From Candidatus Bathyarchaeota archaeon (GTDB lineage Archaea > Thermoproteota > Bathyarchaeia > Hecatellales > Hecatellaceae): a DNA stretch of 64,000 nucleotides. Numbering within the stretch: the stretch's first letter is position 1; the number at the start of each line of letters is the position of its first letter. The position numbers and the translations under genes are program-made. Below are positions 19,542-62,449 of the stretch, piece by piece. The notes beneath the pieces were generated by a model. The model was given only the letters and a program-made list of their open reading frames with translations. It had not been told where the DNA came from and searched no databases. The stretch covers positions 1 to 64,000 of the forward strand of contig JBQPWD010000004.1 of the NCBI GenBank assembly GCA_052246995.1. The letters are read 5' to 3'.

Positions 19542-20710
19542 TTTAAACTATACCTCCTAAGCTCCTCACTATTCCAAATCCAACTTTTATCTTTTTTCTC
19601 ATCAATAAAAACAAATCTTGCAGTACAACTCATACATGGATCTATCCCCGCAAATATTATTGGTATATCGGCAACATGACAACCAATAAGCATTTTACAT
19701 ACTGATGGAAGGTTAGCAAAGGTCGGTGTTCTAATCCTCACCCTTTCAGGCTTCTCCGTTCCATTGGATTTAAGATAGTAGAAAAGCTCACCCCTAGGCG
19801 CTTCACCACGACTGACTGCTTCATTTGGTGGAATATACCATGGAGTTTTAACTCTTATTGGCCCAGAGGGCATATGGTCTAAAGCATAACGTATAATGTT
19901 TATTGCTTCATATGTTTCCCCAACCCTTACAATAATCTGGGCTAAAACATCTCCAGTAGGATAGGTTATAACGTTAAATGGAATTTCATCATAAGCTTGA
20001 TAAGGATCATCCGCACGAACATCCCTTTTAATACCAGTCATTCTTAAAGTTGGACCTACAGCACATAAAGCTATTGCATCCTGTTGGGAAAGCTTACCAA
20101 CGTCAACGACCCTTTCATGGAGGGTTGGTTCTTTTTCAACAACGTTCTTATAAACATTCATCCTTTTCTCTATAATGTCAAGTCCCTTTCTAATCTTATC
20201 CGCTACTTCAGATGAAATATCCCTTCTAACTCCTCCAACAGTTGACATTGCATAGTTAACACGGTTTCCAGATATAAGCTCTAATAAATCCATTACAACT
20301 TCACGGTCACGCCAAACATAGTAAAATAGGGTATCAAACCCAAGCTCATGAGCAGCAACACCAAGCCAAAGAGTATGACTGTGTAGTCTTTCAAGCTCAG
20401 CAACAATTACACGAATATACTGAGCTCTCGGTGGAGCCTCGATGTCTAAAAGCTGTTCCACTCCTTGAACATAAACAAGTGTATGTATAAATGAGCATAT
20501 ACCGCAGACTCTCTCACAAAGATAAATGTTTTGAATGTAGTTTCTGGATTCTGCTGCTTTTTCAATTCCCCTATGAGTATAAATTCTAGGCCAAACGTTA
20601 ACGATGATGTCTCCATCAACCTTAAACAACAATAGTATCGGTTCTTTTAAAGCTGGATGCTGAGGCCCTATAGGTATTTCAAAAGCAGATTCAACTTCTT
20701 TTTCAGACAT
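19523..20710 (-). CDS. Group 4 [NiFe]-hydrogenase large subunit
   Basis: GPQHPAL, HRGIEK, L1 ERVCGICS, L2 DPCMSCTAR followed by a cleavable C-terminal extension; all four Ni-binding Cys present. Confidence 0.95.
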   Translation of the reverse strand: MSEKEVESAFEIPIGPQHPALKEPILLLFKVDGDIIVNVWPRIYTHRGIEKAAESRNYIQNIYLCERVCGICSFIHTLVYVQGVEQLLDIEAPPRAQYIRVIVAELERLHSHTLWLGVAAHELGFDTLFYYVWRDREVVMDLLELISGNRVNYAMSTVGGVRRDISSEVADKIRKGLDIIEKRMNVYKNVVEKEPTLHERVVDVGKLSQQDAIALCAVGPTLRMTGIKRDVRADDPYQAYDEIPFNVITYPTGDVLAQIIVRVGETYEAINIIRYALDHMPSGPIRVKTPWYIPPNEAVSRGEAPRGELFYYLKSNGTEKPERVRIRTPTFANLPSVCKMLIGCHVADIPIIFAGIDPCMSCTARFVFIDEKKDKSWIWNSEELRRYSLKWYGRI

Positions 20711-26591: not shown

Positions 26592-27767
26592 TTGAAGAGG
26601 AAAGAAGAACTTTTGTTAATGATTCCTGGACCGACAAATGTTCCAGAAAGAATTATGAAAACACTTAAGAAACCTATGACAAACCACCGTGGGCCTGAGT
26701 TTCGCAGTCTTTATCAGGGAATTTTAGAGAAACTAAAATATGCTTTCCAGACAAAAAATGATGTTTACCCATTAACATGTTCAGGTACTGGTGGAGTTGA
26801 AGCTGCTGTTGGAAATGTTATTTCTAGGGGGGATAAAGTTATTGTTCCGATGTTTGGACAGTTTTGTGAAAGAATGGGTGAAACCGTTAGACGTTTTGGT
26901 GGCGAGGTTATTGAGGTTAAGGCGGAATGGGGTTCTGCGTGTAGTGTTGAAGAAATTAAGGCTATTCTTGATGTAGAAAAAAATGTTAAAGCTGTTGCTG
27001 TGGTGTATAATGAAACTTCAACTGGTGTAACATTAAGAAGCCTACCAGATATAGGCAAGATTACAAGGGAAAGGGGTGTGCTATTGATTGTTGACGCGGT
27101 TTCAGTTCTACTTGGAGATTATTTACCTGTTGATGAGTGGAATGTGGACTTATGTGTCGCCGGAAGTCAAAAATGTTTTGCATGTCCACCTGGTTTAGCA
27201 ATGGTTTCTGTAAGTGAAAAAGCTTATGAAGCTGCCGAAAAAAACAAGTTTAGACCATTTAATCACGACTTTTTATTGTGGAGGGAATTTAAAGCTAAAC
27301 TTGAAACACCCTTTACACCGTGTATTCCACTGTACTATGCTTTAGATGAAGCATTAAACATTCTTATTGAAGAAGGGTTAGAAAATAGAATCCGTAGACA
27401 TATAACTTGTGCTGAAGCGTTCTACAAAACGTTTGAAAATTTAAATTTAAAAATCGTTGCTAAAGATGAGCTTAGGTCAAACACTATAATTGTTCCATAT
27501 ATTCCTGAGAACATAAATGTTGATGAATTTAGAAAAATTTTGAAAGAAAGGTTTAGGGTTGTTGTTGCAGGGGGAGTTGGTAAGCTTAAGGGCAAGGTTA
27601 TTAGGATAGGGAGTATGGGGGTTGTTTCAGCTTACGAGGTTTTAGCTACAATTAATGGTATAATTAAAACGTTAAAGATGCTCAACTACAAGCCTGAAAA
27701 ACAATTTAAAAAAACTGTTTTAGAAGCTAAAGAAGTGCTTTCTCAACTAAAAGATTTTAAGTTTTAA
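26592..27767 (+). CDS. Class V PLP aminotransferase (serine-pyruvate / alanine-glyoxylate family)
   Basis: LMIPGPT, HRGPEF, SGTGG.EA, NETSTG, VDAVS, GSQKC..PPG, RIGSMG. Confidence 0.9.
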   Translation: MKRKEELLLMIPGPTNVPERIMKTLKKPMTNHRGPEFRSLYQGILEKLKYAFQTKNDVYPLTCSGTGGVEAAVGNVISRGDKVIVPMFGQFCERMGETVRRFGGEVIEVKAEWGSACSVEEIKAILDVEKNVKAVAVVYNETSTGVTLRSLPDIGKITRERGVLLIVDAVSVLLGDYLPVDEWNVDLCVAGSQKCFACPPGLAMVSVSEKAYEAAEKNKFRPFNHDFLLWREFKAKLETPFTPCIPLYYALDEALNILIEEGLENRIRRHITCAEAFYKTFENLNLKIVAKDELRSNTIIVPYIPENINVDEFRKILKERFRVVVAGGVGKLKGKVIRIGSMGVVSAYEVLATINGIIKTLKMLNYKPEKQFKKTVLEAKEVLSQLKDFKF

Positions 27768-29022
27768 TTTCTCCTTTTATTCCCATCTTTTCTAAGACTA
27801 TATCCAAAATTTTTTCTGCAATTTCTTCTTTTCTTGCCATAGGTAGTTTTACAAAACTTTTATTCTTATCAACAACAAGAACCTCATTTGTTTCATGTCG
27901 AAAGCCCACATTTTTCCTACCAACATCATTTGCCACAATTAGGTCTATATTGGCAGACTTAAGACGTTTATACGCTCGTTCTACAAGTTCCTCATCACTT
28001 AAATTATACTCAGCTTTAAATCCAACAACAAAGGTTTTAGGGCTAACCTTCTTAGCTTCTTTAACAATTTTTAATGTTGGTTTAAGCTTTAAATCAAGCA
28101 TTAATGTATCATCGGTGGAAACTTTCTGGTTATACGACTCTATTGGGGTAAAGTCTGCAACAGCTGCAGCCGAAATAAATAAGTGATAGTTTTCTGATTT
28201 AAGCTGTGATAACACGGTGTCAGCCATTTCATTTGACGTTTCCACATTTACTACTTTAATATTTGTTGGAGGTCTAACTATGCCAGGTCCATAAATAAGT
28301 GTAACTTCAGCACCCCTTCTAGAGGCCTCTGACGCGAGGGCTACACCCATTCTTCCAGAGCTTTTATTGGTTATTATTCTGATAGGGTCTATGTACTCGT
28401 AGGTTGGTCCAGCAGCCACTAAAACTTTTAACCCATCCATATCCTTAACGGCTAACCTTTTAACAACAGCTTCAACTATTACTTCTACATCAGCAATCTT
28501 AGCCTTACCTTCCTCAATCCTAGGCTCTATAAACTCAAAACCAAGTTTTTTAAGTTTTTCAATGTTGTCCTTGTTAATAGGATACTCGTAGAGAACCTTA
28601 TGCATAGCTGGAACAACAAGTATGGGTATTCCAGCACTATAAGCAGCTAAAACTAAGGCGGTTACAGGAGTGTCATTTATCCCTGAAGCAAGTTTTCCTA
28701 TTGTATTTAGTGTTGCGGGAGCAATAAGCACAAGGTCAACTTTACCTGAACTTTCAGTTAAAGATAGAAAGTCAATACTGCCATTCATCTCAACAACAGG
28801 CTTATTACCTGTAGCCCACTCTAAAACATCAGGGTTAAGCATTTTTTGGGCCATTGGAGACATAACAGGAAAAACTTCAGCACCCATTCTCATTAATTCT
28901 CTTGCAACCTTGGGTGCAGTTGTTAATGCAATACTTCCAGTAATGCATAAAGCTACCCTTTTACCGTAAAGCTTAGTGCTCTTTGAACCTAGAATATCTT
29001 TTGATGGATGGCTCTTTTCCAT
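27757..29022 (-). CDS. coaBC: Bifunctional phosphopantothenoylcysteine decarboxylase/synthetase
   Basis: ITGSIA, APAT.NTIGK, PAMH, GPT.E.IDP.R.ITNKSSG.MG, AAAVADF, GFKAE, ANDV. Confidence 0.93.
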   Translation of the reverse strand: MEKSHPSKDILGSKSTKLYGKRVALCITGSIALTTAPKVARELMRMGAEVFPVMSPMAQKMLNPDVLEWATGNKPVVEMNGSIDFLSLTESSGKVDLVLIAPATLNTIGKLASGINDTPVTALVLAAYSAGIPILVVPAMHKVLYEYPINKDNIEKLKKLGFEFIEPRIEEGKAKIADVEVIVEAVVKRLAVKDMDGLKVLVAAGPTYEYIDPIRIITNKSSGRMGVALASEASRRGAEVTLIYGPGIVRPPTNIKVVNVETSNEMADTVLSQLKSENYHLFISAAAVADFTPIESYNQKVSTDDTLMLDLKLKPTLKIVKEAKKVSPKTFVVGFKAEYNLSDEELVERAYKRLKSANIDLIVANDVGRKNVGFRHETNEVLVVDKNKSFVKLPMARKEEIAEKILDIVLEKMGIKGEIKT

Positions 29023-29951
29023 AAACCTCCAACCATACTATTTTTTTCTAACATCTTAATTAAAAATGTTAAAAGCGTATTTAGAGGTGTTGGAACTCCA
29101 GTGGAAATACCTAAACGAGATATTGCCCCATTTATATAATCTATTTCCGTTTTTCTTCCCCTCTTAATGTCTTGAAGCATAGAGTTAAAGTTTTCAGCAG
29201 TATCTTTTGCTGTTTTAAATGTTAATTCCACAGGGTCTTCTTGTAGTCGAATTTTAAGTTTATCTGCAACTTTAACACCTTCTAAAACTGTTTCAGCGAT
29301 AAGTTGCTTTAAATCAGCATACTCTAAAAGTTCACCATTTCTCATACCAGTTAAGGTTCCAAACGGATTTATTCCCGCGTTAACAAGAGTCTTTGTCCAA
29401 ACAACTGAGCCAATATTATCAGAAATCTCTACTTGAAAACCAGAGTCTTTAAGGTTTTTAGCAACACCAGCAACACCATCATGACTTTTTCTAGACAATC
29501 CTCCAAGAAAGGTTTTACCAAAACCTGTTGAAACAACAACACCAGGTTTCTCTAAGAAGGCTCCACAAAACGTTACTCCACGTATAATGTTCGCCTCTCC
29601 AATCATCTTTAAAACCTCATCCTCAACGCCTATACCATTCTGTAAACATAGAACCATGGTTTTTTTCCTGATTAGAGGGCATACCTGCTTGGAAGCTTCA
29701 GAAACATCGTAGGCTTTGACTGTTAAAAGAATGAGATCCCATGCCTCTTTTATTAAGGGTTGTATTGACGTTTCAGCCCTAATACTTTTCACAACTTTTT
29801 CCACCAATCCCTCCATTTTTAATCCATAACTTTTAATAGCTTTAACATGTTCTTCCCTAGCAACAATTGTAACATCGTTCTCACCATTAGATGCGAGTAA
29901 ACCTGCAAAAAGACTTCCTATGGAACCAGCGCCCATAACAAGGATTTTCAT
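28989..29951 (-). CDS. panE: 2-dehydropantoate 2-reductase
   Basis: GAGSIG, TVKAY, LQNGIG, WTK..VN..INP, SMLQD...GR.TEIDYING. Confidence 0.93.
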   Translation of the reverse strand: MKILVMGAGSIGSLFAGLLASNGENDVTIVAREEHVKAIKSYGLKMEGLVEKVVKSIRAETSIQPLIKEAWDLILLTVKAYDVSEASKQVCPLIRKKTMVLCLQNGIGVEDEVLKMIGEANIIRGVTFCGAFLEKPGVVVSTGFGKTFLGGLSRKSHDGVAGVAKNLKDSGFQVEISDNIGSVVWTKTLVNAGINPFGTLTGMRNGELLEYADLKQLIAETVLEGVKVADKLKIRLQEDPVELTFKTAKDTAENFNSMLQDIKRGRKTEIDYINGAISRLGISTGVPTPLNTLLTFLIKMLEKNSMVGGLWKRAIHQKIF

Positions 29952-29977
29952 GGAAAAACTCCAGAACTACAACTTTT

Positions 29978-31282
29978 TTACGTAACTTTTTCCCACTTTT
30001 CAATTCTCAAAACTTGCGAAAGTGTACTACCTACCCTAATTTCAGCTTTAATTCTCTGCTCTTTCTCAAGAACATCTTTAGCCCTGTTTGCGATTTCGAC
30101 GGCAATTTCTTTAGGCACAACAACTATACCCGTATCGTCAGCAATAATCCAATCTCCAGGCCTAACTTTAGCCCCTCCACAGTAAATTTCAACATTTATT
30201 TCTCCAAAACCTTTAGGATCTCCAGCTGTGGGGTTTACATATTTAGCAAATACTGGAAAGTTCATCTTTCTTATTTCGTCGACATCTCTAACAGCACCAT
30301 CAATAACAACACCATTCAATCCTTTAACCACACAACTTAAAGTTGCAAGCTCACCCCACACAGCCTTTTTGCTATCACACGCATCAATAACTAAAATGGA
30401 GCCGGGTTCAGCCACATCTATGGCTTCAACAGGTTTAGCCCAATCTCCAGGAGCTGTTTTAACTGTTACAGCTTTACCTACAGCTTTAACACCAGTAACT
30501 ATTGGGAAAATTCCAAACATCTCACCTTTTCTTTGCATAGCATCAGAAATGTTTGCTGAGGAGACCTCCATAAACACTTTTTGAATATCTTCCTCACCAT
30601 ACTTCTTGTAAAGTTTTGTTGGAATGGGCTTTCTTTGTCTTATAGACTCTTTGATTACTTTTGTAGCTTCTTCAGCATTTTCAGCCTTAATTATGGCTCC
30701 ACCAACAATAACTATGCTTGCTCCAGCTTCAACGGCTAAGGGTGCTGTTTCACTATTTATTCCCCCAGCTACAGCAACAGGAATGTTTACAGCATTAACA
30801 ACACCCCTAAGAACATCCAAGGGTTTAATACCTCTCATTTGTTGGTCTATACCAACGTGAACACAGATATAATCTACACCAATTTTTTCAAGCTCAACAG
30901 CTCTTTTAACGTGATTTTCAACGCCTAAAAGGTCAACCATTATTTTTGCACCATACCTCCGCCCTGCCTCAACAGCCTCCCTAATAGTACTATCATCCGA
31001 AACTCCAAGGATTATTACCACTTCAGCCCCAGCTTTAGCAGCGGTCTCAACTTCAACTGACCCTGTATCCACGGTTTTCATGTCAGCAAGGATGGTATAG
31101 CTTGGAAACCTTCTTTTTAACTCTCTAACAGCATCTAAGCCTTCACTCTTAATCAGTGGTGTTCCAGCCTCTAACCAATCTGCTCCTCCGCGGACAGCTT
31201 CTTCAGCAACTTTTAATGCCCTATGAAGGTCTGTAAAATCTAGCGCTACTTGAAGTTTAGTCTCCTTAAAAAGATTGGACAT
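29978..31282 (-). CDS. 3-hexulose-6-phosphate synthase fused to an RraA/HMG-aldolase-like domain
   Basis: N-terminal ~215 aa: LQVALD, EAGTPL, ADMKTVDTG, VHVGIDQQ, VAGGI. C-terminal: ISDAM, GKAVTV, AVWGEL, IDGAVRD..EI, V.PGD.I.AD..G.VV.P. Confidence 0.92.
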   Translation of the reverse strand: MSNLFKETKLQVALDFTDLHRALKVAEEAVRGGADWLEAGTPLIKSEGLDAVRELKRRFPSYTILADMKTVDTGSVEVETAAKAGAEVVIILGVSDDSTIREAVEAGRRYGAKIMVDLLGVENHVKRAVELEKIGVDYICVHVGIDQQMRGIKPLDVLRGVVNAVNIPVAVAGGINSETAPLAVEAGASIVIVGGAIIKAENAEEATKVIKESIRQRKPIPTKLYKKYGEEDIQKVFMEVSSANISDAMQRKGEMFGIFPIVTGVKAVGKAVTVKTAPGDWAKPVEAIDVAEPGSILVIDACDSKKAVWGELATLSCVVKGLNGVVIDGAVRDVDEIRKMNFPVFAKYVNPTAGDPKGFGEINVEIYCGGAKVRPGDWIIADDTGIVVVPKEIAVEIANRAKDVLEKEQRIKAEIRVGSTLSQVLRIEKWEKVT

Positions 31283-31291
31283 GGATATTTA

Positions 31292-32140
31292 CTAACCCCC
31301 CTTTATTATTTCAGATATTATCCTTTTTTCTAGAATTTCAGCTCTGGCTAGTACACCAGGTTTTAGAAGCCTCCTCTCAGCAAATACCTTTAACCTTTTA
31401 CACATAAAATCGACAATTTTGCATAAATTTTCACAATTGTTGTACGAGGCTACCATATTTTTAAGCTTAAGCTTGTTCTCAAACCTTAAATTTTCAGCAA
31501 TTTTAATCATATTTGGCAATGCTCTAACAACATTGTCAACTATCGTAACCGAAGCCCACAGTGCTGTTCTGGAAAACGGGTTTAAATCTATAGCTATAAC
31601 ATTTTTACCCATTTTTCGTAGACATTCTGTTCTATCACCATCCTCAATAGCTAGAAGAACGGTATCAGCTAAGAAGATACCCCTAGGAGAAACCTTACGT
31701 CTTAAGCTGGATAAACCAGGTATTTCTGATGATGCCTCATACCCGACACCAAAAATAGCCTCTAAACCTCTATCCTTTAAAAGTTTAGCTATTTTTGCCT
31801 CACGCGCTAAAGATCTATAAAAAAGGTTTACTTCAACCTTTGCATTAACACTCTTCGCAAGCCTAACGATCTCATCAACACATAAAGCCGCAGCATTACC
31901 GTTAACCGAGATAACAGGATATTTAGATAAAAGCATCATAGCTACAGCTACTTTTTCAGCTTCAAACGCAAATGGCAGGGTTTTTTCTCCAAGAATGTAG
32001 TCAAAGCATTCTCCTCTACCGTGAGCAATAAGTCCAGCTAACGCCACAAGACCCTTCTCAAATCCCTCTACAAGTTTTTCACGGATTCTTAAGGATTCAG
32101 CTCTTGGATGATTTTCAGGTATATGAAATTTATTGCTCAA
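31292..32140 (-). CDS. pps: 4-phosphopantoate--beta-alanine ligase (phosphopantothenate synthetase)
   Basis: HPRAESL..RE, IAHGRGE.FDY..GE, SVNGN, EVNLFYR, EDGDR, IDLNP.SRT. Confidence 0.95.
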   Translation of the reverse strand: MSNKFHIPENHPRAESLRIREKLVEGFEKGLVALAGLIAHGRGECFDYILGEKTLPFAFEAEKVAVAMMLLSKYPVISVNGNAAALCVDEIVRLAKSVNAKVEVNLFYRSLAREAKIAKLLKDRGLEAIFGVGYEASSEIPGLSSLRRKVSPRGIFLADTVLLAIEDGDRTECLRKMGKNVIAIDLNPFSRTALWASVTIVDNVVRALPNMIKIAENLRFENKLKLKNMVASYNNCENLCKIVDFMCKRLKVFAERRLLKPGVLARAEILEKRIISEIIKGG

Positions 32141-33041
32141 TTATCCTCGCCCCTATCAAATCAACATCTGAAGTGATAATTTCACCACCAACCTTTCTAA
32201 ACAAGTTAACATAGGGAAAAACATCCTCAAGTTTATCCTCCTTTATAAGTGTAAATAGTGCTTCACCAAACATGTTCATTGAAAATCTCTGTCCGTTATA
32301 CCTATCCAAAATATCTAGTACATTTCTTAGCCTTTGAGTGTAAATGTTAACTTCATCAGCAAACATTCTAGAAGCTTTTATGAAAGTTTCAACTGATGGT
32401 TTTGCTAGGAAATGTTTCAAAGCTTTTCTTCCAGCCAGATTTATTCTTAACCTAACTTCACGATTTTTCAAGAAGGTCTTTGTTGGTAAAGCTGAGAAAT
32501 ATAAAGAAACAACCTTAAAGCTTGACCAGTTAAACTTCCTTATGGAGCCTACCCCTGGAGCACCAGCTTTATCTCTAACCTCAAATCCGCCGAAAGTTTC
32601 ACCTATAACAGTCCCAAGACCAGTTTTACATTTGATTTCAGCTAAATGTGCAAGTTGTGCTGCTTCGACTTTAGATAATCCTAAATTTAACGCCTCATTT
32701 AAGGCTAGTGACAATCCTAGAACTCCGGCTCCGCTTGTACCGTAACCAGCTCCTACTGGTAGATCGGTTTTATGTATAACTTTAATGTTGTAAGGTTTTT
32801 CTACAAGTTTTGAAAGCTCATTTATCAGTGTTAGAGACACGTCAGCTTTGGTTGGAGAACTATTTATGCTTATGCTTACAATCCACCTATGACTTTTCTC
32901 CACCTCAACCTCGGTGTACACACCTTTGGTTAGCGAAAAACCTCCGCCAAGAGAACCTTTCCTTAGCAAATTTTTATATTTATCATTTATAATAAAAAAA
33001 CCTGTTATATGAGCTGGTGCGAAGGCTTTAACTTTTTTCAA
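32130..33041 (-). CDS. pok: Pantoate kinase (GHMP family)
   Basis: AF.PAHITGFF, GS.G.G, P.GAGYGTSG, AH.AE....TGLG.V, GAPG.G. Confidence 0.92.
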   Translation of the reverse strand: MKKVKAFAPAHITGFFIINDKYKNLLRKGSLGGGFSLTKGVYTEVEVEKSHRWIVSISINSSPTKADVSLTLINELSKLVEKPYNIKVIHKTDLPVGAGYGTSGAGVLGLSLALNEALNLGLSKVEAAQLAHLAEIKCKTGLGTVIGETFGGFEVRDKAGAPGVGSIRKFNWSSFKVVSLYFSALPTKTFLKNREVRLRINLAGRKALKHFLAKPSVETFIKASRMFADEVNIYTQRLRNVLDILDRYNGQRFSMNMFGEALFTLIKEDKLEDVFPYVNLFRKVGGEIITSDVDLIGARIIEQ

Positions 33042-55301: not shown

Positions 55302-56369
55302 CTACTTTTTGGGTTTTATATAGTCTTTACCTTTAGCCTTTAAAGAGCCAACAACAACCCTAAAATACGATTTACCACTTCTTTTATCTTCAACCTCTTC
55401 TAATACTCCTCTTACGTTAACCCATTCACCTTCAGAAAAAATTCCACAATATAAGCCTTCATACGAAACAATTTCATCAATATCAACCTTAGCTTTAGGA
55501 AATTTACATACTGCTTCTTCAATTTTGTAGGTTGAGGGCATGAATATTGATTCTTCAACATTTAAAATTTTTGCATCAACATCAACCAAATCTTTTTGGT
55601 GAACAATTTTTTCACCATATTTTTCTCTAACTTCACTACCAAGCCTAATTGGATGGATTGAAAACATTTTTTCTTCAAAAATACCCCTATTCCATATACG
55701 TCTATAAAGCTCCTTAGCTTCGTCAACTGTTAGAGGGTAAAGTTTAGCTTTGTCACTACACCAGTCTTGAAGTATTTTTCCTGTAAATTTTGATAAACCT
55801 GAAGAAGAACTCTTGTACAGGTCAAGCACAGCTTCTTTAACTTTTAAGCTATTTTCTAAACCGTAAACTGTTATATCAATATCTGAGAAATCTGGGTTAT
55901 GTATTTTAAGTAAAATAGATCCTGTAACACCGAAAAACTTCTCGGGAACACCGCTAACCTCAGACAATTTTAAAATAAGTTTTAAAGCTTTATTCTCTAA
56001 ATAGTCTAGTTTTTTATTCTGGGCAATAATTTCCGAAATTCTTTCCTCAGGACGTAGATGAAGCTTAATGCTGTTTAAGGGTACACTTGAAAATTTAAAG
56101 CCGCAGGTTTCGTCATAAGTAATATACTTTGGATAGTTTGTTTCAAGGTAGGTTAACGTTTTTTCAATCTGAGGTATAGTGTAAAATGTTAAAATTCTTT
56201 CATAACCACCTTTTAGGTTATCTCTTGGAACATACTTTAAATAGGAAATAACCCTCCTAGGAGGATGGACATATCCCACCACACAAAAAAACAGGTTCTC
56301 AACGGTTTGAACATAATCTCTATCCTTAAACTCGCCCTTAAACCTTAACATTTGAGATAAACCCCTCAA
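55302..56369 (-). CDS. Predicted nucleotidyltransferase (pol-beta superfamily, COG1665-like)
   Basis: F.V.G..HPP..VI.YLKY.P, GVTGS.L......SDID..VYG, C-terminal OB-like region. Confidence 0.75.
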   Translation of the reverse strand: MRGLSQMLRFKGEFKDRDYVQTVENLFFCVVGYVHPPRRVISYLKYVPRDNLKGGYERILTFYTIPQIEKTLTYLETNYPKYITYDETCGFKFSSVPLNSIKLHLRPEERISEIIAQNKKLDYLENKALKLILKLSEVSGVPEKFFGVTGSILLKIHNPDFSDIDITVYGLENSLKVKEAVLDLYKSSSSGLSKFTGKILQDWCSDKAKLYPLTVDEAKELYRRIWNRGIFEEKMFSIHPIRLGSEVREKYGEKIVHQKDLVDVDAKILNVEESIFMPSTYKIEEAVCKFPKAKVDIDEIVSYEGLYCGIFSEGEWVNVRGVLEEVEDKRSGKSYFRVVVGSLKAKGKDYIKPKK

Positions 56370-56375
56370 AAATGC

Positions 56376-57377
56376 TTAATCTTTTGGGTAAAAAAGGTCA
56401 CCACTTTCCCCAATAATAACTCTAAAGTACTCACCTTTAACGGATAAAACCTTTTCAAGTTTGCCTTTAACATAAACCCTCTCAAATTTTTTAGCTTGTT
56501 CACAAAACCTTCCTCTAAAAGATACCACCTCTTTTACCATACCAGGGTCTTTAAGGGTTCTGTTAATCACCGAAACATTTCCTAACTTATATTTTGATGG
56601 TGTAAATATAGCTTCGCTGTCATCAACAACATCAGCTTCAAGCTCAATAGACCCCACATACCTGTAGTATTTTTCACCATATCTTTCATCCCCCTCCCAG
56701 ATGTTTTTAATAAACCTAATAAAGTACTCTCTTTGGTTAAAAAATCCTTGAAAAAGTTTTCTTGATTCAACTTTAACAAATTTCTCAAAAGGTAGAGGGG
56801 AATCCTTAACCCTAAACGTATAAAGCTTCTTAAGCTGGTCTTCTTCATATGGTTTTATTAAACCCTCACTTAAAAGCTTTCTAAGAGCGCTATGCACAGC
56901 TTTACATTCTTCTGTACCATAAACAACTAAATCTATATCTGAATCCTCTTTATGTAAACTAACCATAACCGAGCCTGAAACACCTAAACTCGACGGGGAG
57001 ATAGAAGCAAATTTACAAATAAGTTTTACAAACTTAACAGAATCTTCTTCAAGCTTATCAAGATTAATTTTGGTTAAAAGTAGTTGTAGAAATTTTTGTG
57101 GGTGGTAAAATCTTTTAATTCTGGTTCTTGGCACCTCAGCCAAAATGCTATTAAAAACAGGATCAAACCTTAAATATTCAGGAAATTTTTCTTTTAAAAA
57201 AAGGAGAGAATCGGTTAAAGACAAAAATTTTTTGTAACCTTTTCTTTCACCATTTGGAATGTACTTGGGATAAGCTATAACGTAAGTTGGTGGATGAATG
57301 TTTCCTTTTACAGCAAAAATAATACCTTCTAAACTTTCAAGATAATCACCTTCCATTGGAAGGTGTTCTAAATCCAA
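56376..57377 (-). CDS. Predicted nucleotidyltransferase, tandem paralog of 55302-56369
   Basis: F.VKG..HPP..VIAYPKY.P, GVSGS.......SDIDLVVYG, RGRFCEQA. Confidence 0.75.
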   Translation of the reverse strand: MDLEHLPMEGDYLESLEGIIFAVKGNIHPPTYVIAYPKYIPNGERKGYKKFLSLTDSLLFLKEKFPEYLRFDPVFNSILAEVPRTRIKRFYHPQKFLQLLLTKINLDKLEEDSVKFVKLICKFASISPSSLGVSGSVMVSLHKEDSDIDLVVYGTEECKAVHSALRKLLSEGLIKPYEEDQLKKLYTFRVKDSPLPFEKFVKVESRKLFQGFFNQREYFIRFIKNIWEGDERYGEKYYRYVGSIELEADVVDDSEAIFTPSKYKLGNVSVINRTLKDPGMVKEVVSFRGRFCEQAKKFERVYVKGKLEKVLSVKGEYFRVIIGESGDLFYPKD

Positions 57378-57566: not shown

Positions 57567-58214
57567 TTGAGTAAAAAAGGAATCGTCGTACTGGCAGGTG
57601 GTAGAGGAGTTAGACTTAAAAGAAAACTTCCAAAGCCGCTTATAAAACTTCATGGAAAAACTCTTATTGAGCATGTTTTAGAAAAAGTTCAAAAAGTTTC
57701 AAAAAACGTAGTTATTGTTATTAGTAAGGAGGAGGATGAAAAAGCTTTTAGAGACATTGTTTCAGACCGTATACCAATACTTGTTGACGTGGTTAAGAAT
57801 GTTGGGCCTCTATCTGGAATGTTAACAGGTATGCAGAAAATTGAGGCAAATTACGTGTTAACTGTTCCATCAGACACTCCATTTATTAACCCTGAAATCT
57901 TAAAATACCTTTTTAAGAAAGCCAAGAGCCCGGTAGACGCTGTTGTCCCAATTTGGCCTAACAATTTTAAGGAGCCTCTTCAAGCGGTATACAAAAGGAA
58001 TTCAACAGTCAAGGTGTTAGAGGAAAATATTAAAGATGGAGAATTCTCAGTTTTAAGCTTAACGAGAAAATTAAAGAATGTCTTATACATTTCCGTCGAG
58101 GAACTTAAGGTTTTTGATCCTAAATTAATCACGTTTTTTAACATAAACACAGATAGAGACTTACTGCTGGCTAGAAAACTCGTTAGACTATACTCATCTA
58201 GGGTGGAAAAATAG
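57567..58214 (+). CDS. mobA: Molybdenum cofactor guanylyltransferase
   Basis: LAGGRG.R, K.L, GPL.G, D.PF, EPL.A.Y, FFNINT..DL. Confidence 0.88.
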   Translation: MSKKGIVVLAGGRGVRLKRKLPKPLIKLHGKTLIEHVLEKVQKVSKNVVIVISKEEDEKAFRDIVSDRIPILVDVVKNVGPLSGMLTGMQKIEANYVLTVPSDTPFINPEILKYLFKKAKSPVDAVVPIWPNNFKEPLQAVYKRNSTVKVLEENIKDGEFSVLSLTRKLKNVLYISVEELKVFDPKLITFFNINTDRDLLLARKLVRLYSSRVEK

Positions 58215-58254: not shown

Positions 58255-59103
58255 ATGGGTAAACCATCTAAGCTTTTATACATTAAAGAAAAGCACATAG
58301 TAACTATAATAATTAACAGACCTGAAGTTTTAAACTGTATTGACCCTGAAACAGATGCTCTTCTAGCTGACGCTTGGATTAAATTTAGAGAGGATGAAAA
58401 TGCTTATGTAGCAATAATAACTGGAGCTGGAGAAAAATCGTTTTGTACAGGAGCAGACTTAAAAAGCTGGCCTGAATATCTAAAAAGCCGTAATGTGAAT
58501 TTTTTAAGAAAACGGGCATACTATGGTCCTGGTTTTGGAGGCATAACTAGGGGTATTGAAGTTTTTAAACCTATAATTGCAGCTATTAATGGCATGTGCT
58601 ACGCTGGAGGCTTGGAAATTGCTCTTGCAACAGATATAAGATTGGCTGCAGAACATGCAAAATTTGGTGTTTTAAACAGAAGATGGAATGTGGGGTTAGG
58701 GGATGGTGGAACACAAAGACTTCCAAGAGTTATTGGGTTAGGTAGAGCTCTAGAACTCATTCTTACTGGAAAAGAGATTGACGCTTATGAGGCTTATAGG
58801 ATAGGTCTAGTAAACGAGGTTGTACCCAAGGATAAACTTATGAGTAGAGCTAAAGAAATTGCAAAAACTATATGTAAATATCCTCAAGGCTCTATAAGAA
58901 CAGATAAAGAGGCAGTAATTAGAGGAGTGGGTAAAGATTTAGAAGAAGGTTTGAGAATAGAAAACATGCTTTTCAACACACTACTTTTAACTCACGACTT
59001 TTATGAAGGCCCAAAAGCGTTTGCAGAAAAACGTAAACCAAAGTACACAAATGAGAAAGAAAAAATAGGAGGGTTAATTTCACACCATCTTCATGAAAGA
59101 TGA
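58255..59103 (+). CDS. Enoyl-CoA hydratase/isomerase family protein
   Basis: NRPEVLN, FCTGADL, KPIIAAING...AGG.E.AL..D.R, GGTQRLPR.IG. Confidence 0.92.
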   Translation: MGKPSKLLYIKEKHIVTIIINRPEVLNCIDPETDALLADAWIKFREDENAYVAIITGAGEKSFCTGADLKSWPEYLKSRNVNFLRKRAYYGPGFGGITRGIEVFKPIIAAINGMCYAGGLEIALATDIRLAAEHAKFGVLNRRWNVGLGDGGTQRLPRVIGLGRALELILTGKEIDAYEAYRIGLVNEVVPKDKLMSRAKEIAKTICKYPQGSIRTDKEAVIRGVGKDLEEGLRIENMLFNTLLLTHDFYEGPKAFAEKRKPKYTNEKEKIGGLISHHLHER

Positions 59104-59382: not shown

Positions 59383-61854
59383 GTGAGGTTAAGGAAGGTT
59401 AAGATGGAGTTTTACGGTTACATCGGAAAGATTGCAAGAATAAACCTTACAACAGGAAGTATTAAAGCTGAAACGTTAAACCCCAAAATAGCTTACAATT
59501 TCCTTGGTGGAAGGGGTTACGCGGCAAAGATTCTTTATGATGAGCTTAAACCGAACATTCCTCCACTAAGTGAGGAAAACAAGCTAATCTTCATGACTGG
59601 TCCACTAACAGGAACAGACTTTCCAGGGTCAGGTAGAATTTCCATAAGCACAAAGTCCCCTTTAACAGGGACAATTTTTGACTCTTCCATGGGAGGGTCT
59701 TTTGGAACATATCTTAAAAGGTCAGGATATGACGGAATCATTCTTGAGGGTGCAGCTAAAAACCCTACATACATTCTCGTTGACAACGAAAAAGTGTTTA
59801 TAGAAGATGCATCTAGCTTACAAGGTGCATCCACCTTCACCACCGAAGAAAAGTTAAGAAGCCAGCATGGAGTTTGCGGAGTTGCTTGTATTGGTCCTGC
59901 TGGTGAAAACCTTGTTTACCTTGCAAATATAATGTCTGAGGGACGTACAGCTGGTAGGGGTGGTTTAGGTGCTGTTATGGGTTCTAAAAACCTTAAAGCT
60001 ATAGTTGTTAAGGGTGAGAAAAAAGTAAAAATTTTTGATGAAAAAGCATACCGTGTTCTTTTAAAAAAGATTAGGTTCATAATCGAGAATGATCCATTCA
60101 CAGGTTTTGATGGAACTCTTTCAAAGTTTGGTACAGCAGGAATTGTTCATAGGATTAGAAGTGCAGGAATTCTGCCTGTGGAAGATTTTTCAGGTAAAAT
60201 GCTAAGCTTTGAGGAGGCTGACAAGTTTTCCGGTGAAAGTATTAGAGAGAAGTTTTATTTTGGTAGAAAGGGATGTTACTTATGTCCCACTGCCTGTGGA
60301 AGAAGAGTTAAAGTTGAGAATATCATCGTTAAAGGTCCAGAGTATGAATCAATAGTTATGCTTGGACCAAACTCTGGGTTTTATGATTATGAAGAAATAA
60401 CTAAGCTTGCTTTAGAGTGTGATAAGCTTGGTTTGGATACTATTTCTACTGGAAATATTCTGGGTTATGCCAGACAGATTGGCATTATTTCAACATTTAA
60501 AGATGCGTTAAAGTTAATTGAGGAGATAGCCTATCATAGGTCGGTATTCGCTAAAGGTTTAAAAAATGCGGCAAAAATTTTCGGTAGAGATGCTGCTGAG
60601 GTTAAAGGGCTAGAAATTCCAGCATACGATCCTAGAGGAGCTTTAGGTATAGCTTTAGCTTATGCAACATCAAACAGAGGAGGATGTCATCTTAGGGCGT
60701 ACACCATTGCACCTGAAATTTTAAGCAATCCTGTTTACGTTGACCCAGCCACCGAGGTAGGTAAAGCGGAAATTGTGAAGAGAATGCAAGATGTTTTTGC
60801 TGTTTATGATAGTAGCATTATATGTAAGTACCATGGCTTATCCTTGTTTACTAGCCTAAAGTTTGAAGTTGAAGATTTGGCAAGAATTTTAACAAGCTTG
60901 ACAGGATTTAGATTTACAAATAACATTCTCCATGAGATTGGAGGAAGAATTTACAATGTAGAGAGACTTTTTAACTCTAGAGAAGGGTTTACTGTTGAGG
61001 ATGATAAACTACCTAGAAGGTTTAACTTAGACCTAAGCAAACTTTTAGTAGAATATTATAATGTAAGAGGATGGATTGAAGGTAAGCCTCAGCTTCCACC
61101 AAGCTTGCGTGAGGTTGAATATTCCGGAAGAGGAGAGTTAGCAATTACTTCTCTTATGAAACTTAAACCTCCACAGATTCAAGTTGCATTAGACATGGAT
61201 GCCGAGTTGGATACCATCGTAAAAGTTGCACAACAATCCTATATTGGTGGTGCAAGAATAATCGAGGCTGGAACGCCTGCAATTAAAAGACATGGAGTTG
61301 AAAAACTTATACCTGCCTTAAGAGAGGTGGCACCTGAAGCTTTAATAGTTGCTGACATGAAGATAGCTGATGCAGGTAAACTAGAGGCTAGAATAGCTTT
61401 AAGGGCAGGAGCAGATATTGTTGCCGTTTTAGGGATTGGTGGAGTTGAGAAGATTAAAGAAGCTTTAGGAGAAGCTATTAGGAATGATTGTGCAATTTTG
61501 ATAGACTTAATAGACTGTGAAGACCCTATTAAAAGGGCTGAAGAGCTTATTAAAGTTTTAAAAGGAAAAGAGGATTGGGTTATCTTCTGTCTTCATCGAG
61601 GAATAAGTGAACAAATGAGAAGTAGAGGAATTTACGATCAGAAAAGCTTAATCTCAGAGTTTAGAAAGAAGATCAATGGTTTTACAATGGCTATAGCCGG
61701 AGGTATAAGGGAGGGGACAGCTGGGGAGATAGCCTCCTGTGGTGTTGAAATTATAATTGTTGGAAGTGCAATTTATAACTCGGTAAATCCTGTAGAAACA
61801 ACAAAACGTTTCCTAGATGAAGTTAGAAAGATGTATAAAAAAGTCAGCTCCTGA
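59383..61854 (+). CDS. Aldehyde:ferredoxin oxidoreductase (W/Mo-pterin AOR family) fused to a C-terminal 3-hexulose-6-phosphate synthase domain
   Basis: Likely start ATG 59404. AOR motifs: GGRG, KSPLTG, GRGGLGAVMGSKNLKA, CYLCPTAC, EYE, D.LGLDTIS, RGGCHL. From ~61165 HPS motifs: QVALD, IEAGTP, VADMKIADAG, H.G, IAGGI, IVGSAI. One uninterrupted frame. Confidence 0.9.
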   Translation: MRLRKVKMEFYGYIGKIARINLTTGSIKAETLNPKIAYNFLGGRGYAAKILYDELKPNIPPLSEENKLIFMTGPLTGTDFPGSGRISISTKSPLTGTIFDSSMGGSFGTYLKRSGYDGIILEGAAKNPTYILVDNEKVFIEDASSLQGASTFTTEEKLRSQHGVCGVACIGPAGENLVYLANIMSEGRTAGRGGLGAVMGSKNLKAIVVKGEKKVKIFDEKAYRVLLKKIRFIIENDPFTGFDGTLSKFGTAGIVHRIRSAGILPVEDFSGKMLSFEEADKFSGESIREKFYFGRKGCYLCPTACGRRVKVENIIVKGPEYESIVMLGPNSGFYDYEEITKLALECDKLGLDTISTGNILGYARQIGIISTFKDALKLIEEIAYHRSVFAKGLKNAAKIFGRDAAEVKGLEIPAYDPRGALGIALAYATSNRGGCHLRAYTIAPEILSNPVYVDPATEVGKAEIVKRMQDVFAVYDSSIICKYHGLSLFTSLKFEVEDLARILTSLTGFRFTNNILHEIGGRIYNVERLFNSREGFTVEDDKLPRRFNLDLSKLLVEYYNVRGWIEGKPQLPPSLREVEYSGRGELAITSLMKLKPPQIQVALDMDAELDTIVKVAQQSYIGGARIIEAGTPAIKRHGVEKLIPALREVAPEALIVADMKIADAGKLEARIALRAGADIVAVLGIGGVEKIKEALGEAIRNDCAILIDLIDCEDPIKRAEELIKVLKGKEDWVIFCLHRGISEQMRSRGIYDQKSLISEFRKKINGFTMAIAGGIREGTAGEIASCGVEIIIVGSAIYNSVNPVETTKRFLDEVRKMYKKVSS

Positions 61855-62449
61855 GGCTGGGATGAAGCCTCTTACAAGAAACTTCTATGCTAGAGATACA
61901 GTTGTTGTTGCAAAGGCTTTACTTGGGAAACTTCTTGTAAGAAGATTGGGTAAAAAAATGCTTATCGGTAAAATTGTTGAGGTTGAAGCTTATAAAGGAT
62001 TTGAAGACCCTGCAAGTCATGCGTACAGGGGTGAAACTTCTCGAAACAAAGTTATGTTTGGAAGAGCAGGACATGCGTACATCTACTTTACATATGGAAA
62101 CCATTATCTTTTGAATGTTAAAACAGAAAGGATTGGAGTGCCAGGAGCAGTCTTGATAAGGGCTTTAGAACCTTTAGTTGGAGTAGAAACTATGCTGAAG
62201 CTTAGAGGTGTAAATGATGTTAGAAATCTTACTAATGGACCTGGTAAACTTACTAAGGCGTTAAACATTACAGCAAAGTTAAATGGTTTGGATTTAACAA
62301 GGGAAAATAAACTTTTTATTTGTAAGCCTAAAAACAATGAAAAATTTGAGGTAGAATGTGGCAGAAGGGTAGGCATAAAGGTTGGTTTAGATAAACTTTG
62401 GAGATTTTATGTTAAAAACAATCCTTATATTTCAAAAAGTAAAACTTAG
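61817..62449 (+). CDS. mpg: DNA-3-methyladenine glycosylase (MPG/AAG family)
   Basis: VAKALLGK, IVE.EAY.G..DPASH, Y.Y..YG, AVLIRA.EP, GPGKL, LWRF; probable start ATG 61862. Confidence 0.92.
   Translation: MKLERCIKKSAPEAGMKPLTRNFYARDTVVVAKALLGKLLVRRLGKKMLIGKIVEVEAYKGFEDPASHAYRGETSRNKVMFGRAGHAYIYFTYGNHYLLNVKTERIGVPGAVLIRALEPLVGVETMLKLRGVNDVRNLTNGPGKLTKALNITAKLNGLDLTRENKLFICKPKNNEKFEVECGRRVGIKVGLDKLWRFYVKNNPYISKSKT

Follow-up and report, generated by a model that had tools for sequence, protein, structure and literature searches.

In many archaea the ribulose monophosphate (RuMP) pathway is run backwards for the supply of pentose phosphates, and one formaldehyde is freed for each pentose formed. 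Methanogens trap this formaldehyde with Fae-Hps, a fusion of formaldehyde-activating enzyme to hexulose-6-phosphate synthase (HPS), together with tetrahydromethanopterin (H4MPT). The bifunctional Fae-Hps is reportedly the subject of a 2005 paper by Goenrich et al., and a second fusion, the Hps-Phi of Thermococcales, in which HPS is joined to 6-phospho-3-hexuloisomerase (PHI), is said to be treated in papers by Orita et al. from 2005 and 2006. The stretch of DNA analyzed here, referred to as the window, comprises the first 64,000 nucleotides of contig JBQPWD010000004.1 (assembly GCA_052246995.1) from a hot-spring Candidatus Bathyarchaeota archaeon, and its forward strand encodes one polypeptide in which an enzyme of the aldehyde:ferredoxin oxidoreductase (AOR) family is followed by an HPS-type barrel. 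Comparison with related proteins confirms that this AOR-HPS fusion is real, conserved and catalytically intact-looking in both halves, and the partnership of AOR and HPS is, as judged from sequence, under selection. We consider it probable, at roughly 0.6, that the enzyme serves pentose synthesis by the reverse RuMP pathway and oxidizes the formaldehyde to formate where it is formed, with reduction of ferredoxin, and that it is an analogue of Fae-Hps but not a member of that family.

Fae-Hps (methanogens and Archaeoglobi; NCBIfam model NF009833) resembles the window protein in having a C-terminal HPS barrel behind a formaldehyde-consuming N-terminal enzyme and in its proposed role in ribulose 5-phosphate (Ru5P) synthesis by the reverse RuMP pathway, and the C-terminal part of the window protein matches positions 171-380 of NF009833. 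However, the partner is an AOR-family redox enzyme of ~560 residues instead of Fae, and whereas the product of Fae-Hps is methylene-H4MPT, that proposed for AOR-HPS is formate together with reduced ferredoxin. The match to NF009833 (138 bits) lies below the cut-off of 274 bits, and the protein contains no Fae domain (PF08714). Hps-Phi (Thermococcales; 9LJ9, NF041755) supplies the best solved match to the barrel (105 bits) and belongs to the archaeal reverse RuMP route to pentoses, but its partner is the next enzyme of the pathway, PHI, which is located C-terminally and leaves formaldehyde unhandled; the PHI of the window's genome is separate and unlinked. The AOR of Pyrococcus furiosus (1AOR) and formaldehyde:ferredoxin oxidoreductase (FOR; 1B25) share with the N-terminal part of the fusion the fold (TM(target) of 0.88 and 0.85, respectively), both Pfam domains, the Fe-S cysteines and the equivalents of Glu313 and His448, but they lack the HPS barrel that the window protein has at its C terminus. 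The subtype to which the window protein belongs (type A, described below) also differs from them in lacking a segment of ~13 residues ahead of the ...YY..RGW end, which is kept in the type-B relatives. AOR-HPS is best regarded as a putative analogue of Fae-Hps that combines two familiar protein families.

As a metabolic idea, with the enzymes separate, this has been published before. PMC8065059 proposes that separate AORs oxidize formaldehyde to formate, and PMC9723716 proposes the same for separate AORs acting on RuMP-derived formaldehyde; separate AORs are also treated in PMC11291895. Where fusions are mentioned in passages of PMC11291895, PMC6946796 and PMC7143981, they are Hps-Phi and Fae-Hps, and those of PMC10547907 mention only hps and phi. 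An AOR-HPS fusion was not found described in the full-text literature, a search that left subscription journals, supplements and ~1.7 million PMC articles outside it, and as far as could be searched the fused enzyme is apparently undescribed.

The frame at 59383..61854 (forward strand) stays open throughout and encodes 823 residues when counted from GTG 59383. An earlier reading of this DNA, made from its letters alone (the original prediction), had described a single 823-residue frame joining an AOR-family enzyme to an HPS barrel, and this is borne out by translation, by Pfam matches and by motifs in both halves; the 28-residue linker and the EAGTP, DMK..D and His motifs are all present in the direct translation of the window as they were quoted. 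The likelier start codon is ATG 59404, giving 816 residues, because a purine-rich GGAAGG stretch precedes it and because the homologue from the same genus (locus L036) also opens with MEFYGY. In the source records such proteins are named "orotidine 5'-phosphate decarboxylase", "aldehyde ferredoxin oxidoreductase" or "hypothetical". The features of the gene are as follows.

59404..61854, forward strand: whole AOR-HPS fusion gene, 816 residues plus stop; the frame extends 5' to GTG 59383.
59425..60015, forward strand: AFOR_N (AOR domain 1), Pfam PF02730, residues 15-211, 9.2e-81; the genome search gave the same range.
60061..61092, forward strand: AFOR_C (AOR domains 2 and 3, the cofactor-binding part), Pfam PF01314, residues 227-570, 8.2e-90.
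60274..60297, forward strand: CxxCxxxC (CYLCPTAC; C291, C294, C298), three of the four [4Fe-4S] cysteines, equal to C288/C291/C295 of 1AOR.
60340..60348, forward strand: E313-Y314-E315, beside the metal site, equal to AOR Glu311-Tyr312-Glu313; E313 and E315 are invariant.
60688..60690, forward strand: His429, equal to AOR His448 by alignment to 1AOR.
60823..60825, forward strand: Cys474, fourth [4Fe-4S] ligand, with D469-x4-C474 read as AOR D489-x4-C494.
61078..61173, forward strand: linker arm (residues 559-590; EGKPQ...KLKPP), in the predicted structure an ordered segment wrapped on the AOR domain.
61171..61812, forward strand: HPS-type TIM barrel of the OMPdecase family, Pfam PF00215, residues 597-810, 1.4e-23; the top NCBIfam and PDB matches are HPS.
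61264..61278, forward strand: EAGTP (621-625), HPS motif, from direct translation.
61354..61371, forward strand: DMKIAD (651-656), HPS motif, from direct translation.
61594, forward strand: His731, HPS motif, from direct translation.

The junction is spanned by two Logan contigs assembled from metagenomes of hot springs: X1, a contig of 10,465 b, covers positions 59971-62100, and X2 covers 60997-61999. Compared with the window's open reading frame, the two show two substitutions (E550, synonymous, and S815N), with no insertion or deletion listed inside the frame. A stop or frameshift in the linker, for which the original prediction proposed to look, is found on neither of these independent contigs, and the in-frame ATG at 61156 (Met585), to which it had also pointed, is not a conserved start; of the aligned rows, three of the five of type A have Met585, and the 16 of type B all lack it. 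The recurrence of the AFOR_N, AFOR_C and OMPdecase architecture, also proposed as a check, proved to be wide among archaea. With residues 520-816 as the query, 86 of 87 matches contained AFOR and OMPdecase domains in ~800-835 residues, and when the query was only the AOR part, the 120 best matches consisted of 110 fusions and ten AOR-only proteins (three of these being short or labelled partial). Over 130 clusters of proteins, formed at 90% identity, have this architecture, and of 401 genomes sampled from the window's phylum at least 45, the window's own included, contain a full-length match in one frame; 80 aligned fusion proteins are 45-90% identical to the query. By source name the carriers are Bathyarchaeia/Bathyarchaeota, Hecatellales, Hadarchaeota, Methanomethylicia/Verstraetearchaeota, Nezhaarchaeota and metagenome-assembled genomes (MAGs) labelled "Thaumarchaeota/Nitrososphaerota", together with the Asgard Heimdall-, Thor-, Hod-, Hermod- and Promethearchaeota. 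No chain that spans the AOR and HPS parts was found in sequence and fold searches of solved structures.

The fusions comprise two subtypes. (i) Type A is the subtype of the window and of its genus and family, and Hadarchaeia and two other lineages also belong to it; the ~13-residue segment near the AOR C terminus is missing, the linker has ~32-35 residues, and the divergent HPS barrel contains a small insertion. (ii) Type B includes Methanomethylicota, Nezhaarchaeales and some genomes of the class Bathyarchaeia and, by the placement of AOR parts in the AOR tree, Asgard archaea and a form of 991 residues; the 16 aligned rows retain the AOR tail in its canonical form, RGWDxxGxP...LGL, and a canonical HPS follows it directly.

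Membership of the N-terminal part in the AOR family is indicated by scores of 270.8 bits for AFOR_N (cut-off 29.8) and 302.1 bits for AFOR_C (cut-off 27), both above the gathering cut-off, and this part aligns with residues 2-588 of 1AOR. Residues C291, C294, C298, C474, E315 and H429 are invariant in the alignment of 80 fusion proteins; as in 1AOR, we take the cysteines to ligate the [4Fe-4S] cluster and the Glu and His to sit beside the metal. The equivalence of Cys474 with C494 rests on the D-x4-C spacing, the HMMER alignment having a gap at that place. By sequence, the AOR half scores 401 bits against P. furiosus AOR and 282 bits against FOR, and it does not fall in the FOR subfamily, with 9MQX, 9G7J, 8C0Z and 9Q1T, in addition to 1AOR, outscoring 1B25. 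We infer a module that would oxidize aldehydes with ferredoxin by means of a [4Fe-4S] cluster and a pterin cofactor, presumably the tungsto- or molybdo-bispterin of the AOR family. The surroundings of the fusion were compared in 20 related loci, with ~6 kb of flank per side where the contig allowed. In nine of the 20, from three families, a divergent ThiS/MoaD-family gene (~81-130 residues) lies directly upstream (the loci named are L015-L019, L021, L023, L024, L028 and L029), which fits an enzyme with a pterin cofactor; the window's own locus has no such gene. This is the only recurrent candidate, and no transporter recurs beside the fusion in these loci. The other neighbours that they share, namely CTP synthase, SAM synthetase, fumarase, NFACT and GlmS, represent lineage synteny.

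In the C-terminal barrel, the listed motifs are accompanied by D597, D701, AGG (765-767) and GSAI (787-790), and these residues are either invariant or conserved to 90% or more. The active-site set of HPS and 3-keto-L-gulonate-6-phosphate decarboxylase (KGPDC), consisting of D597, E621-P625, D651/K653/D656, H731 and G733, is present and is invariant in the 80 fusion sequences, whereas for the phosphate-grip residues G766-G767, G787 and I790 conservation is 90% or higher in the 80 and complete in an alignment of 34 sequences. The HPS active-site residues align with those of 9LJ9 and 3AJX. Their roles are presumably those of the OMPDC suprafamily, with the D after strand 1, the E-GTP, D-x-K-x-x-D and H-x-G motifs, and the GG and G-x-x-I phosphate grips. 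After 9LJ9, the closest solved structure to the ~220 C-terminal residues is the HPS 3AJX (90 bits), and KGPDC scores 49 bits. HPS models also lead the NCBIfam ranking of this part, yet all score under their own cut-offs. Assignment to KGPDC fails by a wide interval, with 65 bits on NF009832 (cut-off 250) and 53 bits on NF009831 (cut-off 294). A type-B fused HPS (locus L018) passes the RuMP_HxlA model TIGR03128 with 207.5 bits (cut-off 200). The barrel is a putative Mg-dependent hexulose-6-phosphate lyase/synthase.

An AlphaFold2 model computed with the 80-sequence alignment has a predicted local distance difference test (pLDDT) score of 94.2 and a predicted TM score (pTM) of 0.92, with ~90 in the linker; the only stretch with pLDDT below 50 is the loop after His731 (residues 734-743). 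Docking of residues 1-558 against 559-816 gave a score of 0.85 (0.84, 0.86 and 0.85 in separate runs), and the best of three controls gave 0.00. Among solved complexes 58 of 80 attain a score of 0.85, as do two of 110 mismatched pairs, counts that are only rough since the present alignment is our own, and a pass was favoured beforehand because the halves belong to one chain and their alignment rows are perfectly paired. Since none of the solved chains spans AOR and HPS together, the pass does not reproduce a complex already solved. Agreement between the runs extends to 97% or more of the contacts, and the pLDDT of the partner is 88 or more. The interface consists mainly of linker residues 559-585 lying on AOR residues 27-32, 211-229, 494-531 and 552-558, with a contribution from barrel residues 689-695 and 721-724. 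The latter precede strands 697-701 and 726-731 in the model, as assigned by DSSP, and their position at the N-terminal ends of the strands places the non-catalytic face of the barrel in contact. The model supports a rigid two-module enzyme with a fixed arrangement of domains.

The window's genome (1.53 Mb, 100% complete) encodes a stand-alone PHI, unlinked to the fusion, at C3:21865-22437 (TIGR03127, 194.5 bits; cut-off 160). Profile searches of this genome found neither Fae nor a Transketolase_N match. The original prediction had suggested a look for phi and fae, and the outcome, PHI present and Fae absent, together with the absence of transketolase, fits a reverse RuMP role with removal of formaldehyde. 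It had further called the system H4MPT-independent, which agrees with the lack of Fae but less well with the presence of Mch (389 bits); the genome probably has H4MPT chemistry. Five AOR genes and one pyrF are also encoded. Among the 44 other fusion-bearing genomes, PHI is above its cut-off in 40 and Fae is missing from 37, the seven that have it all belonging to one family, and 30 of 45 fusion genomes, the window's own counted, have no transketolase. Family f21, with 23 genomes, is the most informative for the barrel: 18 genomes have the fusion and one weak OMPdecase match, two have the fusion alone and three have an extra stand-alone match, so that 20 of 23 contain no other OMPdecase-family match above ~52 bits. 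Of the matches checked, one weak one is pyrF-like and one extra one is a true HPS. PHI is present in all 23. The fused barrel therefore appears to be the only candidate HPS in 20 of these genomes, and because there is no other, the fused HPS must do the work of HPS in many genomes.

In the mechanism that we favour, PHI, encoded elsewhere, would convert fructose 6-phosphate to hexulose 6-phosphate, the C-terminal barrel would cleave this to Ru5P and formaldehyde, and the N-terminal module would oxidize formaldehyde to formate with transfer of two electrons to ferredoxin. The HPS equilibrium lies on the side of condensation, and oxidation of aldehydes by AOR with ferredoxin is strongly exergonic. 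Removal of formaldehyde would thus serve both as detoxification and as a pull on an otherwise unfavourable cleavage toward pentose phosphate, and the net reaction would be conversion of hexose phosphate to pentose phosphate, formate and two reduced ferredoxins. A supply of this ferredoxin to the group 4 hydrogenase, envisaged in the original prediction, would be a hypothetical further step. The substrates, the direction, the metal (tungsten or molybdenum), ferredoxin as the acceptor and any channelling are parts of this proposal that are deduced. The idea of a Fae-Hps analogue, already put forward in the original prediction, is upheld by the architecture, the motifs and the presence of PHI without Fae, but the HPS is of a divergent subtype and the AOR half is nearer to AOR than to FOR.

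Several results weigh against this mechanism. The proximity of the AOR half to broad-specificity AOR rather than FOR holds for fold as well as sequence (Foldseek E-values of 1.3e-49 to 1AOR and 1.3e-42 to 1B25). The window barrel scores 134.4 bits on TIGR03128, which is below the equivalog cut-off of 200, and in the HPS trees the type-A HPS domain is divergent and lies on a long branch. In the predicted structure the barrel meets the AOR domain by its non-catalytic face, and its catalytic face points away. The model accordingly gives no support to the proximity of active sites for which a structural check had been suggested, nor to an intramolecular tunnel or direct channelling, and any channelling would need an oligomer. 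The tungstate-binding protein WtpA was not found by profile search of the window's genome. As regards a fate for the formate, Fhs was likewise not found there, and matches to the formate dehydrogenase (FDH) alpha subunit are all below cut-off. Genes for ferredoxin, PHI or FDH do not recur beside the fusion in the 20 loci. The runs that supplied X1 and X2 bear the label metatranscriptomic together with a flag that they are probably DNA, and their contigs are used here for sequence only. Finally, a canonical HPS-RraA-like gene shares both the genome and the window with the fusion, and two of the four other type-A genomes examined (G109 and G280) have a longer HPS gene that is extended at the C terminus; another, G336, has a cut match of 181 residues that is perhaps a longer HPS gene too. 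Housekeeping HPS activity in the window's genome need not come from the fusion. The second gene is the following.

29978..31282, reverse strand: HPS-RraA-like gene, 434 residues; NF005442, 660 bits (cut-off 593); TIGR03128, 225.4 bits (cut-off 200).

This protein (family NF005442) has a canonical HPS barrel with a C-terminal RraA/aldolase-like domain and no N-terminal AOR; it is a paralogous HPS in a separate system. A long HPS form with a C-terminal extension is found in many fusion-bearing genomes.

The presence of the second HPS gives weight to a reading in which the housekeeping HPS is the gene at 29978..31282 and the fusion acts on another substrate pair: its divergent barrel would cleave or form some other sugar phosphate, and the short aldehyde released, glycolaldehyde for example, would be oxidized by the broad-range AOR module. 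The AOR half being nearest to broad-specificity AORs, the type-A barrel being under the HxlA cut-off and on a long branch away from the type-B fused HPS domains, and the longer or cut HPS genes of other type-A genomes all point the same way, and the divergence of the barrel together with the second HPS keeps this reading alive for type A. However, every residue common to HPS enzymes is kept, HPS leads KGPDC by 134 to 65 bits in NCBIfam and by 105 to 49 bits among structures, in one genome of type A (G172, 91% complete) the fusion is the only OMPdecase-family gene seen, and the type-B relatives are canonical HPS and the sole HPS of their genomes, so that we regard it as unlikely. We consider it more doubtful still that the module runs in reverse, or in both directions, as a one-carbon module for fixing formate or turning pentose into hexose, in which reduced ferredoxin would drive formate to formaldehyde and HPS would fix the latter onto Ru5P. 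AOR-family enzymes are reversible, as in the reduction of acids by AORs, condensation is the favourable direction for HPS, the coupling would hold free formaldehyde low, and the sequence leaves the direction unfixed; moreover, 14 of the 23 f21 genomes have a gene for the N-terminal part of transketolase, and a cycle is conceivable there. Against this, the window's complete genome has no Transketolase_N match, 30 of 45 fusion genomes are likewise without one, and a RuMP cycle in those genomes would have no regeneration of Ru5P because transketolase is missing; nor does the window's genome have a clear FDH or Fhs. If true, such a reversible module would be a natural counterpart of the formate-to-RuMP step sought in synthetic biology.

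That the gene is an assembly chimera, a pair joined by a frameshift or a fusion with one inactive half is hardly credible. The sole hint of an artefact is the in-frame ATG at 61156, and it has to be set against the independent assemblies that span the junction without indels, the same architecture in all of those clusters, the invariance of the catalytic residues of both halves and the sporadic occurrence of Met585 in type A and its absence from type B.

If the reverse RuMP reading with oxidation of formaldehyde is correct, the fusion bears on a problem in non-methanogenic and H4MPT-poor archaea, for which MAG papers have so far guessed that formaldehyde is handled by "some AOR". A conserved one-chain AOR-HPS is a concrete candidate answer for its disposal. 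It would also constitute a ferredoxin-linked analogue of the oxidative pentose phosphate step, in which hexose phosphate yields pentose phosphate, an oxidized one-carbon unit and low-potential electrons. Given the names in source records, pathway reconstructions can miss or miscount AOR-HPS. The enzyme may have a use in engineering of formaldehyde or formate conversion.

A FastTree phylogeny of 179 AOR domains, from which six truncated proteins were dropped and shorter fragments were removed by a length filter, separates the two subtypes; it leaves out one paralogue of the window's genome (L010), which was not recovered by the filter for open reading frames. The type-A clade has 78 rows (71 fused and seven split; support 100), and the type-B clade has 72 (71 fused and one protein labelled partial; support 92). 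A separate clade contains 18 of the 20 stand-alone AORs of the same phylum, one paralogue from the window's genome and one further AOR-only protein. The remaining two stand-alone AORs and two more paralogues of the window's genome join at the base of the tree, where the backbone is not resolved. No ordinary stand-alone AOR lies inside either fused clade among these 179 rows. In the HPS trees, types A and B are apart, with A on the side of Fae-Hps and stand-alone HPS, and B near HPS genes with a C-terminal extension. A single clade of all 30 fused HPS domains was not rejected by the approximately unbiased (AU) test (log-likelihood difference 17.4, p 0.152), which was made on 60 of 102 rows after three ambiguous short-contig rows had been dropped and the C-terminal-extension and Fae-Hps rows thinned. 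The two subtypes may have come from independent fusions, and a single origin is also compatible with the AU test. The HPS query also recovered Fae-Hps genes, at 16 of 80 loci. In 46 of the 80 related loci the HPS frame has a long C-terminal extension, RraA-like and PHI extensions being pooled in this count, of which the HPS-RraA-like form makes up a part or the whole.

Natural split forms occur in type A. At four Bathyarchaeia MAG loci (L031, L032, L035 and L037), the AOR gene terminates at ...RGW[IV], exactly at the domain junction, with stops TGA, TAG, TGA and TAG, respectively, and the next codon in the same frame (GTG, TTG, ATG and GTG) opens a gene of 269-284 residues for the linker and HPS. 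The linker thus stays with the HPS gene. The original prediction had reckoned with relatives that always carry two unlinked genes; at these split loci the opposite is found, the halves abutting one another. Seven AOR-only proteins of 562-571 residues nest among the type-A fusions in the AOR tree, and because the split forms lie inside the fused clade (support 98), their sequences suggest that the pairs arose by secondary fission. A stop followed directly by a start in the same frame suggests coupling by termination and reinitiation, and ribosomes might now and then read through the stop and make a fused product. A further frame for HPS (264 residues) is seen at L051, on a MAG contig labelled "Nitrososphaerota". 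It groups tightly with the fused HPS domains of the Methanomethylicota type, but the frame extends no more than 14 codons upstream; either a split form of type B or a break in the assembly may account for it.

The neighbours of the fusion in the window (MobA-like NTP transferase, enoyl-CoA hydratase and methylpurine glycosylase) are unrelated to it. The first two lie just upstream, in an arrangement conserved in the same genus only.

57567..58214, forward strand: MobA-like NTP transferase.
58255..59103, forward strand: enoyl-CoA hydratase.

Farther upstream, 55302..57377 (reverse strand) contains tandem paralogous open reading frames of 333-355 residues that are conserved in the same genus; one has a weak match to a nucleotidyltransferase domain, and the other has no Pfam family. 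The second HPS gene is flanked, within 27757..33041 (reverse strand), by CoaBC-like and ketopantoate-reductase-like genes and by two genes that are of archaeal type by translation; these look related to CoA and pantothenate. Three genes of the Complex1_49kDa type, which may encode the large subunit of a group 4 [NiFe] hydrogenase or be Nuo-like, are located at 19619..20344 (reverse strand) of the window, at C4:149706-150443 and at C6:94064-94786.

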